A model generated the notes under the pieces. That model saw nothing but the letters and a program-made list of their open reading frames with translations, did not search any database and was not told the DNA's origin. A stretch of DNA of 64,000 bases, taken from Myxococcota bacterium. Its GTDB lineage: Bacteria > Myxococcota_A > UBA9160 > JAFDDA01. Shown here in pieces: positions 1,449 to 60,781 of this stretch (positions within the stretch are counted from its first letter, which is position 1; each line of letters starts with the position of its first letter). The DNA is taken from contig OZ245817.1 of the NCBI GenBank assembly GCA_965228475.1, positions 1,632,001 to 1,696,000 on the forward strand, in the 5' to 3' direction. A program made the position numbers and the translations under genes.

Positions 1449-5636
<4,188 letters not shown>

Positions 5637-5648
5637 AGGGGCTGCACC

Positions 5649-9818
<4,170 letters not shown>

Positions 9819-56525: not shown

Positions 56526-57128
56526 ATGTTCACCGGGATCATCGAGACCGTCGGGACCGTCGTCGCGCTCGATCGCAAGGGCGAGCTGGCGCGCATCGGG
56601 ATCGAGGCGCCGGCCATCCTCGAGGGCGTCCGGGTCGGCGACAGCATCGCGGTCAACGGCACCTGCCTCACGGTCACCCGCCTCGCGCCGCCGCGCGTCG
56701 ATTTCGACGCCGTCCGCGAGACGCTCGAAGTCACGGCCCTCGGCGCGCTCGAAGTCGGCTCCACGGTGAACCTCGAGCGCGCCATGCGCGCGGACGGGCG
56801 CCTCGACGGCCACATCGTCCAGGGCCACGTCGACGCGACCGGCACGGTCCGCTCCCTCGAGCGCCAGGGGGACGACGTCCGCTTCGCCGTCGAGACCGGG
56901 CCGGAGTTCGCGGACCTGCTCATCCCGAAGGGCTCGGTCACCATCGACGGTGTGTCGCTCACCGTCGTGAACGTCGAGCCCGACGGCTTCGACGTCGTGC
57001 TGATCCCGCACACCCTGAAGGAAACGACCCTCGGCCGCCGCGAGCCCGGCGACCCGGTGAACCTCGAGGGCGACGTCCTCGGGAAGTACGTGAAGCGCTA
57101 TCTCGAGCGAATCGCCCCGGGCGCCTGA
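56526..57128 (+). CDS. ribE: Riboflavin synthase (alpha chain)
   Basis: MFTGII N-terminus, GDSIAVNGTCLT, VNLERA, GHIVQGHVD, KGSVTIDGVSLT. Confidence 0.96.
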   Translation: MFTGIIETVGTVVALDRKGELARIGIEAPAILEGVRVGDSIAVNGTCLTVTRLAPPRVDFDAVRETLEVTALGALEVGSTVNLERAMRADGRLDGHIVQGHVDATGTVRSLERQGDDVRFAVETGPEFADLLIPKGSVTIDGVSLTVVNVEPDGFDVVLIPHTLKETTLGRREPGDPVNLEGDVLGKYVKRYLERIAPGA

Positions 57129-57155
57129 CTCGAGCGAATCGTCCCGGGCGCCCGA
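57102..57155. repeat. 27-bp tandem direct repeat duplicating the 3' end of riboflavin synthase
   Basis: CTCGAGCGAATCGCCCCGGGCGCCTGA (57102-57128) and CTCGAGCGAATCGTCCCGGGCGCCCGA (57129-57155); 2 mismatches. Confidence 0.92.
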
Positions 57156-57185
57156 GGCCCGCCCACCCCCGGCCCGGAGGCTCCC

Positions 57186-57881
57186 ATGTTCCGCCCCCTC
57201 GACGTCGCCAGCTCGCTCTTCGCCACCCTCGCCCGCGGCGTCGCGGGCCTCTCCGTCGGGACGCTCGGCAAGCGTCCGGAGAAGCCCCTCGAGCTCTACG
57301 AGTTCGAGTCCTGCCCGTACTGCCGGAAGGCCCGCGAGGCGCTCTCCATCCTGGATCTCGACGCCATCGTCTACCCCTGCCCGAAGGGCGGTCCGCGCTT
57401 CCGCGAGCACGTGCGGAAGGTGGGCGGCAAGGCCCAGTTCCCCTACCTGGTCGATCCGAACACCGGTAAATCGCTCTACGAGTCCGACGAGATCGTCCGC
57501 TACCTGTTCGAGACCTACGGCGACGGCAGCGTCCCGTTCTCGCTCGCTGCCGGCCCGCTGACGGACGTGAGTTCGACGATCGCTTCCGGACTCCGCCTCG
57601 GGGCCGGCACGACCTACCGGAAGGCGAAGCCGCCCGAGCGCATGCTCGAACTCTGGAGCTTCGAGGCGTCGCCTTTCTGCCGCATCGCGCGGGAGGCCCT
57701 CTGCACGCTCGAGATTCCCTACAAGCTCCACAACGTGGCGAAGGGGAGCCCGGGCCGCGCGGCCTTCGAAGAGCGCTCGGGAAAGATGATGGTGCCCTTC
57801 CTCGTGGACCCGAACACCGGCGTCGAGATGTTCGAGTCCGCCGACATCGTGGCCTACCTCGAGGCCACCTACGGGGCTTAG
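57186..57881 (+). CDS. Tandem GST-N / glutaredoxin-like domain protein
   Basis: Two similar halves: LELYEFESCPYCRKAREAL...PYLVDPNTG..YESDEIV and LELWSFEASPFCRIAREAL...PFLVDPNTG..FESADIV. Confidence 0.88.
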   Translation: MFRPLDVASSLFATLARGVAGLSVGTLGKRPEKPLELYEFESCPYCRKAREALSILDLDAIVYPCPKGGPRFREHVRKVGGKAQFPYLVDPNTGKSLYESDEIVRYLFETYGDGSVPFSLAAGPLTDVSSTIASGLRLGAGTTYRKAKPPERMLELWSFEASPFCRIAREALCTLEIPYKLHNVAKGSPGRAAFEERSGKMMVPFLVDPNTGVEMFESADIVAYLEATYGA

Positions 57882-59356
57882 CGCCTTCTTCGGCGCTCCG
57901 CGGCCAGGACGAGCGCTCCGACGATCGCCAGGAGCGCCGCGGACGGCTCGGGGACCTGGGTGAGGAAGACACCCGACGAGGAGACGAACTCGACCCCCGG
58001 GGCGAGACCGATTTCCAGCGTCGCGGTGTTCGACGCATCGATCGAGGCCGTCGTGACTTCGGTGAACAACAGATGGGTGAGCGTCAGGACGGGATTGCTG
58101 CCCGGGATGACGACGGTACCGCTCTCCTCGAACCCGGTGACGTAGAAGGGTGGTGCGCAGAAGGGGTCGGAAGGATTGTCGAAGGTCGGGCAGGTCTCGA
58201 AGAGTTCGCCGCCGATGGTCCGGAGGTCGAGATCCGAGAAGCTCGTGTCCGCGGGGACGACTTCGAGATCGGTGAAGGCCTGGGCGCGCCAGCGCTCCGT
58301 GGGAAAGACCGTCAGCTGTTCGTCCTGGGCGGTGAAGGGATCCAGCCGGGTCGTGAACGTGATTTCGTAGTTCCCGTCCGGGTTCGTCGGCCCACTGAAT
58401 TCGAGGGTCTCGGTGTACAGGGCCCCGACGAAGAGGGGGAAGTTGACGGCTTCGGCGTTCAGCAGGTCCCGGGCGAGGGCCTCGACCCGTAGCGAGCCCG
58501 AGGCGAGACTGGCGGACGCTTCGATGTCGATCTCCCAATCCGACGTGGGCGAGCCGACGAGGGGTCCCCTCCCGTTGAAGATCTCGTGGAAATCCACCCC
58601 GGTGAACGGTACCGGTCCGCCCTCGTCCAGGAACACGAAGTTCGAGCCGACGAGGGTGTCACGGCTTCCATCTTCCGTCGGCATCATCGGGAAATCGACG
58701 GTGGTGCGAGCGGATACCCGCGTCGAGTAGTCGAGCGTGACCTGGGCGTTCGCGCTCGGTGCGACCCACAGCGCCGCACTGGCGAAGGCCAGCCCGAAGG
58801 CCGTCGGGATCCGGCGCCGGCGGGTCAGGAGGGCGACGGTCCCCACGAGGGCGAGTAGCACGCTCGAGGGCTCCGGGACGCGCTGGATCGTGAAGGTGCT
58901 CTGCGAGCCGTTGATGACGAAGAAGTCGTCGAGTACGTCGTAGCTCCCGCCTCCCATTCCGTTCGTGAGCGAGGTCGCGAAGAGGCGGATCCCGTCACCT
59001 TCGGCGTCGAACAGGTTGAACTGGAGCTGGCTCAGGTCGTTGGCCGACCAGGCGATCGTCTGGTTGATGCCGACGCGGAGGGTGTCGCTCGCGTCGAGGT
59101 CCACGCCGTTCACCGTGCCGACGAAGGCGATGAGCACCGAGAACGCTGGCGGGGAGTCGCAGCCGGGCGACGAGGCGCAGACGTCGGACCCGGGCGTACC
59201 CGGCAGATCGACGGTCAAGATCCCGCTGCCGCCGGTGGCCGTGCCCGAGCCGGCGAAGTCGAGTTCGTACTCGACGGGGATCGCCGACGCCGGCGCGGCG
59301 AGAGCGGCGAGCAGGGTGGTCAGGAGCCAGGTTCGAAGTCGACGAGCCAAGCGCAT
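57878..59356 (-). CDS. PEP-CTERM protein with two PEP-CTERM sorting signals
   Basis: N-terminal signal peptide (…AAPASA), internal VPEP-TM-RRRR (aa 160-182), second signal-like segment ending ANA (aa 183-204), C-terminal VPEP-TM-RRRRR (aa 468-492). Confidence 0.88.
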   Translation of the reverse strand: MRLARRLRTWLLTTLLAALAAPASAIPVEYELDFAGSGTATGGSGILTVDLPGTPGSDVCASSPGCDSPPAFSVLIAFVGTVNGVDLDASDTLRVGINQTIAWSANDLSQLQFNLFDAEGDGIRLFATSLTNGMGGGSYDVLDDFFVINGSQSTFTIQRVPEPSSVLLALVGTVALLTRRRRIPTAFGLAFASAALWVAPSANAQVTLDYSTRVSARTTVDFPMMPTEDGSRDTLVGSNFVFLDEGGPVPFTGVDFHEIFNGRGPLVGSPTSDWEIDIEASASLASGSLRVEALARDLLNAEAVNFPLFVGALYTETLEFSGPTNPDGNYEITFTTRLDPFTAQDEQLTVFPTERWRAQAFTDLEVVPADTSFSDLDLRTIGGELFETCPTFDNPSDPFCAPPFYVTGFEESGTVVIPGSNPVLTLTHLLFTEVTTASIDASNTATLEIGLAPGVEFVSSSGVFLTQVPEPSAALLAIVGALVLAAERRRRR

Positions 59357-59428
59357 GCATCCTCCTGGGCTACACGCTTGGGTGGCAGGCGGAATGCAAT
59401 TGTGGCGGCTCGCCCCCTGGGGGCCGGC

Positions 59429-60781
59429 TCAGGCGAGCCGGTCGAGCAGCGCGGTGCCGAGGCCGAGGAAGGTCAGCAGGCCGACCACGTCGGTCAGGGT
59501 CGTCACGATCACGCCCGAACCGAGGGCCGGGTCCTGGCGAAGCGCCTTCAGCAGGAGCGGGACGGCCGCACCGAGCATGCCCGCCACGCCGACCGTCACG
59601 AACATGGCCGCGAACAGGACGCCGCCGAGCCACGGGTTCCCCTGCCAGAGGGTGGCCATGCCGGCCGCCACGCCGCCGGCGATGAGCCCGATCGTGAGGG
59701 CGACACCGAGCTCCTTCGCGACGAGCCGGAGCCCGCTCGAGAACTCGATCTCCCCGAGCGCGATGCCGCGCGTGATCACCGTGAGCGACTGGATGCCGCT
59801 GTTCCCGCCCATGCCCGCGACGACGGGCAGGAAGAAGGCGAGGGCGACGAGCTCCTCGAGCGTCCGCTCGAAGCGGCCGATCACCCAGGCCGCCACGAAC
59901 AGCGCGCCGAGATTCAGGAGCATCCAGGGCAGGCGCCGCCGTACGGACTGGAGCGGCGTGCTGAACACGCGGTCCTCTTCGTGGAGGCCCGCCATGTAGT
60001 AGATGTCCTCGGTTGCCTCTTCGTTGATGACCTCGATCACGTCGTCGACGGTGATCACGCCGAGGATGCGGTTCTCGTCGTCGACGACGGGCATCGCGAG
60101 CAGGTTGTACCGGGAGACGGCCTGGGCGGCTTCCTCTTGGTCCGCGTCGGCGCGGATGCTCACGGGGTCGCGGATCATCAGCTCGCCGAGCTGCCGGTCC
60201 GGTGCGGCGGCGACCAGACGGCGGATCGGCACGACGCCCGAGAGCCCGCCCTTCTCGTCGACGACGTAGAGGTAGAGGATCGCCTCGGTGGCCTCGCCCT
60301 CGGCGCGGATGCGGTCGATCGCACCCTGCGCCGTCGTGCCCTGTTCGAGCGCGACGAAGCCCGTCGTCATGGCACGGCCCGCGCTCTCGGCGGGGTAGAG
60401 CTCGGCCTTGCGAAGCTCCGCGGCCTTGTCCTCGGGCAGGCGCGCGATCACCGGGGCGCGCCGTTCCTCGGGCAGCCTCTCGACCATCTCGAGCATGTCG
60501 TCGATCTCGAGGCGCGCGAGGATCTCGGCCAGCCGGGCGTCGCCGAGGGCGTCGAAGATCTGCGGGAAGAGTTCCGGCGGCAGCTCGCGCAGGGTCGGCG
60601 CGGCGCGATGCTGGCGGTAGAGCACGTCGACGACGGTACGGATCTCGTCGGGTTGCAGATCGCCGAGCACCGGGGCCAGATCCGCGGGGCGGGAGCGCGC
60701 CAGCAGCCGTTCCGCGCGGGTCACCAGCCCGGACGCGAGCAGGCGTCGCAGGACGCGGACGGTCAGCTGGGGATCGGCCAT
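59429..60781 (-). CDS. mgtE: Magnesium transporter MgtE
   Basis: N-terminal helical domain, CBS pair (SAGRAMT, LYVVDE, GVITVDDV), RRLPW, MGGNSGIQ, DPALGSG, TTLTDVVG. Confidence 0.95.
   Translation of the reverse strand: MADPQLTVRVLRRLLASGLVTRAERLLARSRPADLAPVLGDLQPDEIRTVVDVLYRQHRAAPTLRELPPELFPQIFDALGDARLAEILARLEIDDMLEMVERLPEERRAPVIARLPEDKAAELRKAELYPAESAGRAMTTGFVALEQGTTAQGAIDRIRAEGEATEAILYLYVVDEKGGLSGVVPIRRLVAAAPDRQLGELMIRDPVSIRADADQEEAAQAVSRYNLLAMPVVDDENRILGVITVDDVIEVINEEATEDIYYMAGLHEEDRVFSTPLQSVRRRLPWMLLNLGALFVAAWVIGRFERTLEELVALAFFLPVVAGMGGNSGIQSLTVITRGIALGEIEFSSGLRLVAKELGVALTIGLIAGGVAAGMATLWQGNPWLGGVLFAAMFVTVGVAGMLGAAVPLLLKALRQDPALGSGVIVTTLTDVVGLLTFLGLGTALLDRLA

Follow-up and report, generated by a model that had tools for sequence, protein, structure and literature searches.

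Does one bacterial gene encode one surface protein or two? The question is raised by an open reading frame (ORF) in a 64,000-nt stretch (the window) of the genome of a Myxococcota bacterium (GCA_965228475.1, contig OZ245817.1, positions 1,632,001 to 1,696,000). At 57878..59356 of its minus strand, the window holds a single open frame of 492 codons plus TAA (protein P0001). The encoded chain carries two PEP-CTERM sorting tags, i.e., a PEP motif followed by a transmembrane (TM) segment and an arginine cluster. One tag is located at the extreme C-terminus, while the other has 310 residues after it. Judged from its sequence, the gene probably encodes a secreted polyprotein, born when two ordinary PEP-CTERM genes were fused in frame.

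Anatomy of the double PEP-CTERM gene

All coordinates of the gene refer to the minus strand. The Shine-Dalgarno (SD) sequence AGGAGG of the main start (59361..59366) is found 4 nt ahead of the ATG (script-computed duplex energy -9.4). Residues 1-25 (59282..59356) form a putative Sec-type signal peptide ending in APASA; as for all signal-peptide calls in this study, simple hydropathy rules were used, here together with an alignment to protein P0155. Unit A (aa 26-159; 58880..59281) is acidic (16 D/E vs. 3 K/R) with 19% Ser/Thr and 2 Cys. It leads into the internal PEP-CTERM tag (aa 160-182; 58811..58879), composed of VPEP, an uncharged TM segment of 15 residues (mean hydropathy 2.12) and RRRR. 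This Arg cluster (aa 179-182; 58811..58822) would be both the cytoplasmic stop of the first tag and the basic n-region of a second signal peptide, whose hydrophobic h-region (mean hydropathy 1.66) and c-region follow directly (IPTAFGLAFASAALWVAPSANA; aa 183-204; 58745..58810; with Pro200 and A-N-A). Both hydrophobic segments form a hairpin at aa 164-198, and the predicted signal peptidase I (SPase I) cut Ala204/Gln205 is 45 residues from the start of the internal tag. Unit B (aa 205-467; 57956..58744) is acidic as well (39 D/E vs. 10 K/R; 20% Ser/Thr; 2 Cys) and is followed by the terminal tag VPEP-TM-RRRRR (aa 468-492) with the stop codon (57878..57955).

Profile scans identify both tags. Pfam PF07589 reports two stretches in P0001 (23.5 bits vs. 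a cut-off of 20.7), which is what an earlier note on this DNA had expected from a hidden Markov model (HMM) scan. TIGR02595 scores 26.2 bits (cut-off 16), where one stretch, the internal one, passes on its own. The NF038129 score sums to 50 bits over two stretches and stays below the curated cut-off of 65, such that P0001 is not assigned to that family. Since both tags read VPEP without Cys, the invariant Cys of MYXO-CTERM is absent. The uninterrupted frame and the place of every segment quoted in the earlier note could be confirmed, and the exosortase gene it called for is present: two genes exceed the TIGR02602 cut-off, while none exceeds that of a subtype. For Peptidase_S26 (SPase I), three genome matches are over cut-off.

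Each unit resembles an independent protein. Unit A is 38% identical to P0155 (194 aa; own signal, terminal IPEP), whose A-L-A site aligns gap-free with the A-S-A of the N-terminal signal. Unit B shows 38% identity over its length to P0006 (317 aa; own signal, terminal IPEP), whose A-V-A and the internal A-N-A are offset by about one residue at most. The two units are mutually unrelated (best E 1.4), for which reason we rejected tandem duplication as origin of the ORF; it does hold for P0002 (31% over 135 aa). No named family was found for unit A or B in Pfam, and the ESM Atlas provided unnamed hypothetical clusters alone. P0005, which combines a fumarase-like N-terminus with a 54%-identical homologue of unit B, is probably chimeric and was not used as evidence. 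A single-sequence AlphaFold model (mean predicted local distance difference test score 34.8) was set aside and not used either.

Given this anatomy, the following processing can be proposed. The N-terminal signal would start Sec export of unit A, as is standard, before TM1 halts the transfer with RRRR staying inside (positive-inside rule). Anatomy and recurrence (see below) suggest that the second h-region would re-start export for unit B, which TM2 would halt again. SPase I would cut after Ala25 and, quite likely, after Ala204, as site conservation indicates. Exosortase would cut the terminal PEP, and by analogy with archaeosortase we lean slightly towards a cut at the internal PEP as well, which would release a short two-helix remnant. 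Expected products of the 52 kDa precursor are a mature A of ~14 kDa (18 kDa if the hairpin stays) and a B of ~29-31 kDa. We infer an A:B output of 1:1, which is not assured, because two in-frame GTG codons (Val166 and Val171; 58844..58861) with moderate SD-like sites upstream could add further unit B.

Recurrence of the junction and its putative second signal peptide

We studied how widely the junction recurs using a profile built from five junctions (E <= 0.001; matches clustered at 50% identity). It matches 331 protein clusters, i.e., the junction search proposed in the earlier note reveals a recurrent design. Of 150 listed proteins, we kept 147 as a library, after removal of P0025 (a near-copy of P0003) and two query proteins; all were taken as database entries. 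An internal tag is present in 142/147, and 133/142 also end in a terminal tag. The longest library protein shows ten Pfam tags; it is labelled Planctomycetales, as is one other. The distance from internal tag to cut has its library mode at 45-51 residues, which covers the 45 residues of the A-B junction. When 61 and 193 genomes were searched (no more than 99 and 35 candidates scored per genome, respectively; fetched loci read), junction ORFs were found in at least 8 other genomes of three further families. One protein family keeps the junction across genomes at 50-68% identity. At two junctions (L048:2745-4766, L103:1566-3344), a lipobox replaces AxA, such that the second unit would be released by signal peptidase II (SPase II). 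That is, the second element shows the kind of variation known from real signal peptides.

At L099:359-5197, an internal PEP-CTERM junction precedes a DUF6531 and RHS-repeat protein of ~1450 residues. Further junctions precede a galactose-oxidase-like Kelch protein (L097:1098-4376) and an FG-GAP repeat protein (L101:2909-5737), for both of which the terminal tag was not found by pattern.

Next to 86 terminal PEP-CTERM ORFs (>=12 bits with a genome-derived profile), the genome under study encodes three further double PEP-CTERM genes (C1:1532823-1533959, C1:3336426-3338255 and C1:4197019-4198845). The cargo is unrelated among the four double genes. Respective counts are lower bounds, since the genome-derived tail HMM detects 2/4 internal tags and a strict hairpin regular expression (regex) also 2/4, missing the ORF at 57878-59356. 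A near-identical library copy of one double gene is still fused and differs in 3 residues, two of which are conservative changes inside the junction. In the first of the three further genes, a single domain has been duplicated in tandem (31% identity), and the last is part of a run of three PEP-CTERM genes. A fifth gene (C1:2539938-2544152), a few kb from the second exosortase, encodes a secreted protein of large size, in which an internal tag of Cys type is combined with an Arg cluster, a second h-region and a terminal IPEP. Its junction thus follows the same design, but the tag differs.

We evaluated whether the element behind the internal tag is a signal peptide. A second h-region follows 233/253 internal motifs of the library, and an h-region with AxA or lipobox follows 180/253; both rates are inflated, as the library was ranked by a profile that itself contains h-region and AxA. 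When the best junction of each multi-unit protein is removed, an h-region is found in 99/111 and a site in 65/111 cases. As a control, we read in-frame past the stops of regex-called terminal motifs of this genome. Here, only 9/113 show an h-region and 3/113 an h-region with AxA; one of the latter is, in fact, an adjacent gene's own signal peptide. Thus, at sequence level, a second h-region plus AxA after an internal tag is not a matter of chance. Furthermore, AxA is present in 178/233 c-windows compared to 125.5 +/- 6.7 in 1000 composition shuffles.

The test with the least bias comes from a DUF4465-containing family, which was fetched by cargo patterns alone. Its 79 loci comprise 10 hairpin fusions (8 with PEP, 2 with decayed PEP), 9 direct fusions free of a hairpin, 28 split and 32 one-unit loci. 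Three of the 10 hairpin fusions are ORFs of the family compared at 50-68% identity. In all 10, an SPase-I-type site is located 3-4 residues before the first unit-B motif, and the same register is found in 16/18 stand-alone copies compared (18 of 19, with L148 left out). A cobalamin riboswitch lies upstream of 6/6 fused genes of this family that were scanned (L117, L118, L119, L120, L124, L131), which points to a putative surface polyprotein of two units under B12 control. The four double genes of the genome under study showed no such riboswitch.

The origin of such a joint can be followed in a relative (G008), where one contig encodes the fused unit B together with two stand-alone paralogues of it. 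Just past the cut, 175 and 167 of 180 nt are identical to these paralogues. Within the signal, identity amounts to 20 and 21 of 21 nt for the c-region, 27/42 for the h-region and 11/39 for the n-region. That is, the h-region has diverged yet is still hydrophobic, while the n-region was replaced by the tag's arginines. The sequences of this relative capture the double use of the Arg cluster as a fusion event, in line with the respective claim of the earlier note. In the A-B gene, an in-frame fusion of this kind would have removed A's stop, the spacer as well as B's start and n-region; therefore, A's Arg cluster would serve as B's n-region. Upstream of both stand-alone paralogues (L047:18-1016 and 4502-6958), we observe a tag of Cys-Gly-Leu-Gly type in the same frame, complete with TM and arginines. 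It precedes the Met of the paralogue by ~45 codons and is a possible fusion intermediate. In the genome under study, C1:3241470-3243338 holds two PEP-CTERM genes in the same frame with one stop and 14 codons between them; such an in-frame tandem pair is likely the starting state of these fusions.

Fusions of this kind probably arise easily and are tolerated, and some are then retained for long. There is support for selection on the junction design and in one family, but not on this A-B pair; by sequence, what is conserved is the junction design rather than the pair. The stand-alone homologues, the recurrence and the register of the site lend good support to the TM hairpin and the internal signal peptide put forward in the earlier note, whose overall interpretation is partly supported.

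Besides the inflated library rates, several observations weigh against the polyprotein reading. Other Ala spacings are enriched, too (A..A z 3.5, A....A z 5.8, vs. A.A z 9.9). The h-region of the A-B junction is weak, with 45/253 library junctions scoring at or below it, and 20/253 internal motifs lack a second h-region according to our rules, one of them within the ten-unit protein. Because two DUF4465 hairpin fusions have lost PEP and nine fusions join their domains hairpin-free, it may be that neither an exosortase cut at the internal tag nor separation itself is required. Long-tailed PEP-CTERM proteins are regarded as possibly non-functional in the respective passage of Haft 2006 (PMC1569441). 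Finally, the A-B pair has no fused homologue in the proteins, relatives and metagenomes searched, where the units are separate. A full-length homologue search matched P0001 itself alone among 8000 candidates scored, 60 relatives showed short C-terminal matches alone, and a metagenome scan gave one 33-residue match. The earlier note had considered that homologues might always be two separate genes, with a junction unique to this strain. This does not hold for the architecture, which recurs, but does in part for the A-B pair, whose fusion was found in this organism alone. The third refuting outcome of the earlier note, the lack of a predicted or observed cut after ANA, does not apply to the architecture either, since a cut is predicted there.

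Alternative explanations

The alternative that survives best, which we nevertheless consider unlikely, is a hairpin that is inserted but stays uncut or is cut in part. The product would be one membrane protein with two tethered outside domains, where the second h-region acts as signal anchor. It is consistent with the 9 loci at which DUF4465 domains share one chain without hairpin and with internal twin-arginine translocation (Tat) signals of classes IV and V, described as uncleaved in a passage of PMC13673990; in addition, a loop of just four Arg could hinder protease access. On the other hand, AxA is enriched over composition and retained at the stand-alone register, and the c-region of the G008 fusion is nearly unchanged while its h-region diverged. 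Moreover, the 16 residues of the h-region at the A-B junction are short for a permanent anchor, and the lipobox variants are sensible solely as cleaved signals.

It is rather improbable that unit B is mainly made from an internal GTG start (Val166 or Val171) as an ordinary preprotein, with the long frame mostly serving unit A with an extended tail. Both GTG codons are within TM1 and have SD-like energies of -5.8 and -5.4, compared to -9.4 for the main start. The first one uses a GGAG within the PEP codons, and either start would yield a plausible signal peptide. Among 13 junctions studied at DNA level, 5 have a start with an SD-like site <= -3.5, but 5/13 show no ATG, GTG or TTG at all between PEP and the first basic residue. 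Furthermore, ordinary terminal tags contain such codons equally often (57/90; with SD-like site 23/90), and Met is not enriched in internal tags (128/5060 residues vs. 60/2738). For these reasons, an internal start cannot be the general rule for the junctions. Since translation encounters no stop behind unit A, it yields the full-length chain in any case, which the cell has to deal with.

Still less probable is a recent neutral or harmful accident of this lineage, i.e., a product that is mis-sorted or degraded and a junction without function. Some observations are in line with it. The double gene sits between a convergent glutaredoxin/GST-like gene, with whose stop codon its own stop overlaps, and mgtE. 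Because the GST-like gene and mgtE are adjacent in relatives (empty site in 3/5 checked: G001, G002, G008), we consider the double gene a lineage-specific insertion; one low-depth contig of run X4 also joins the GST-like gene straight to mgtE. The A-B fusion is a singleton, some library proteins are likely chimeric (e.g., P0005), and atypically placed tags may be non-functional according to the passage of Haft 2006 (PMC1569441) on tag position. However, both units are full length without stop or shift, and GC content at third codon positions is high (0.94 over 50 junction codons, similar to the remainder of the gene). The A-B joint shows the modal spacing, one genome holds four or five such genes, and the family conserved at 50-68% identity keeps its junction across genomes. 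Within 57600-59700, no sigma-70 promoter or terminator was found, and overall GC is 67% for the double gene and 68% and 71% for its neighbours. The GST-like gene (57186-57881, plus strand) encodes two tandem glutaredoxin/GST N-terminal domains and is kept beside mgtE across the order.

An assembly artefact, i.e., a lost stop or an indel that joined two genes, can be set aside: although X1 and X2 may be the source sample of the assembly and contigs drop rare variants, the contigs of three runs from two studies cross the junction without the stop or frameshift named as refuting in the earlier note (over 57000-60000, neither X1 nor X2 shows a difference or a gap; X3 covers 58062-59020 with a single substitution outside the junction), and gene B's start and n-region would not fit into the joint.

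Relation to known systems and implications

Substrates of the PEP-CTERM/exosortase system share an N-terminal signal, acidic Ser/Thr-rich cargo and a PEP-TM-basic tag, with many tagged genes besides the exosortase (PMC1569441). Haft 2006 (PMC1569441) describes the cargo as without known homology and, in the passage on tag position, places the tags at the extreme C-terminus with no TM between signal and tag, save in one small family. By its features, each unit of P0001 is an ordinary PEP-CTERM substrate, while the whole chain departs from the terminal position and from the absence of an internal TM. That is, its internal tag is intact and is followed without a break by another signal and another tagged protein. 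One continuous frame encodes independent proteins, and an internal n-h-c signal places small -3/-1 residues at the mature start of B. The chain would work like a polyprotein processed by signal peptidase.

Abdul Halim et al. reportedly described, in 2017, a substrate of ArtA in Haloferax volcanii whose PGF tripartite signal is not terminal. It is alike in that an enzyme of the exosortase/archaeosortase family acts on a non-terminal tag; the respective passage of PMC9263693 locates the ArtA signal 'at the C-terminus or in other regions'. It differs in being a Tat substrate with an archaeal PGF tag, for which the same passage mentions neither a second cleavable signal nor a second tagged protein. 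For archaeosortases, a lipid-anchoring model is outlined in part of PMC7157517, while the evidence for processing by bacterial exosortases is genetic and indirect according to a passage of PMC12188702. A further case is MXAN_5598 of Myxococcus xanthus, whose internal MYXO-CTERM is ascribed to a fusion of two genes in a passage of PMC11980579, which proposes that the N-terminal part is processed and surface-anchored. Tag and enzyme differ from our case, it is a single untested one, and the passage describes neither an internal signal peptide that shares the arginines nor repeated units.

Internal signals cut by signal peptidase are known from other contexts. Bradyrhizobium japonicum FbcH is a cytochrome b-c1 precursor that signal peptidase splits at an internal signal after a TM segment. 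It differs in forming one fixed respiratory complex without sorting tag or modular repetition; our literature searches did not retrieve this precedent. The Gn/Gc polyprotein of bunyaviruses also combines a stop-transfer anchor with a following internal signal, where signal peptidase cuts it into separate membrane proteins, as described in part of PMC5113920. Being viral, sequence-unrelated and processed in the eukaryotic endoplasmic reticulum, it provides an analogy and not a membership. Literature searches, with subscription papers and supplements outside their scope, found no paper on PEP-CTERM polyproteins, and the words 'internal' and 'two copies' were not found in the covered part of preprint 10.1101/2023.06.07.544157. 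Internal PGF- and MYXO-CTERM tags are already published. The chain is probably a fusion-born surface polyprotein within a known sorting system, and its joint design recurs widely.

Terminal position is what defines C-terminal sorting tags, and cleaved polyproteins are, to our knowledge, rare in bacteria. Tentatively, and with some reserve, we suggest that PEP-TM-Arg-h-AxA could be a portable and selected 'cut-here' joint, by which bacteria with an exosortase string unrelated surface proteins into polyproteins of up to 10 units, where SPase I or SPase II releases each next unit. If true, bacteria would have their own equivalent of viral envelope polyproteins, with operons replaced by one translation event and one translocon passage. 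Partner proteins would reach one surface spot together, and exosortase would need no free C-terminus. For the question of what a bacterial exosortase recognises and at which position it cuts, the joint offers a suitable test substrate; it might also serve to export several proteins encoded in a single frame. If the chains are cut as predicted, hundreds of database entries listed as one protein would each stand for two to ten surface proteins, and fusing genes would be a cheap route to coupled surface proteins.

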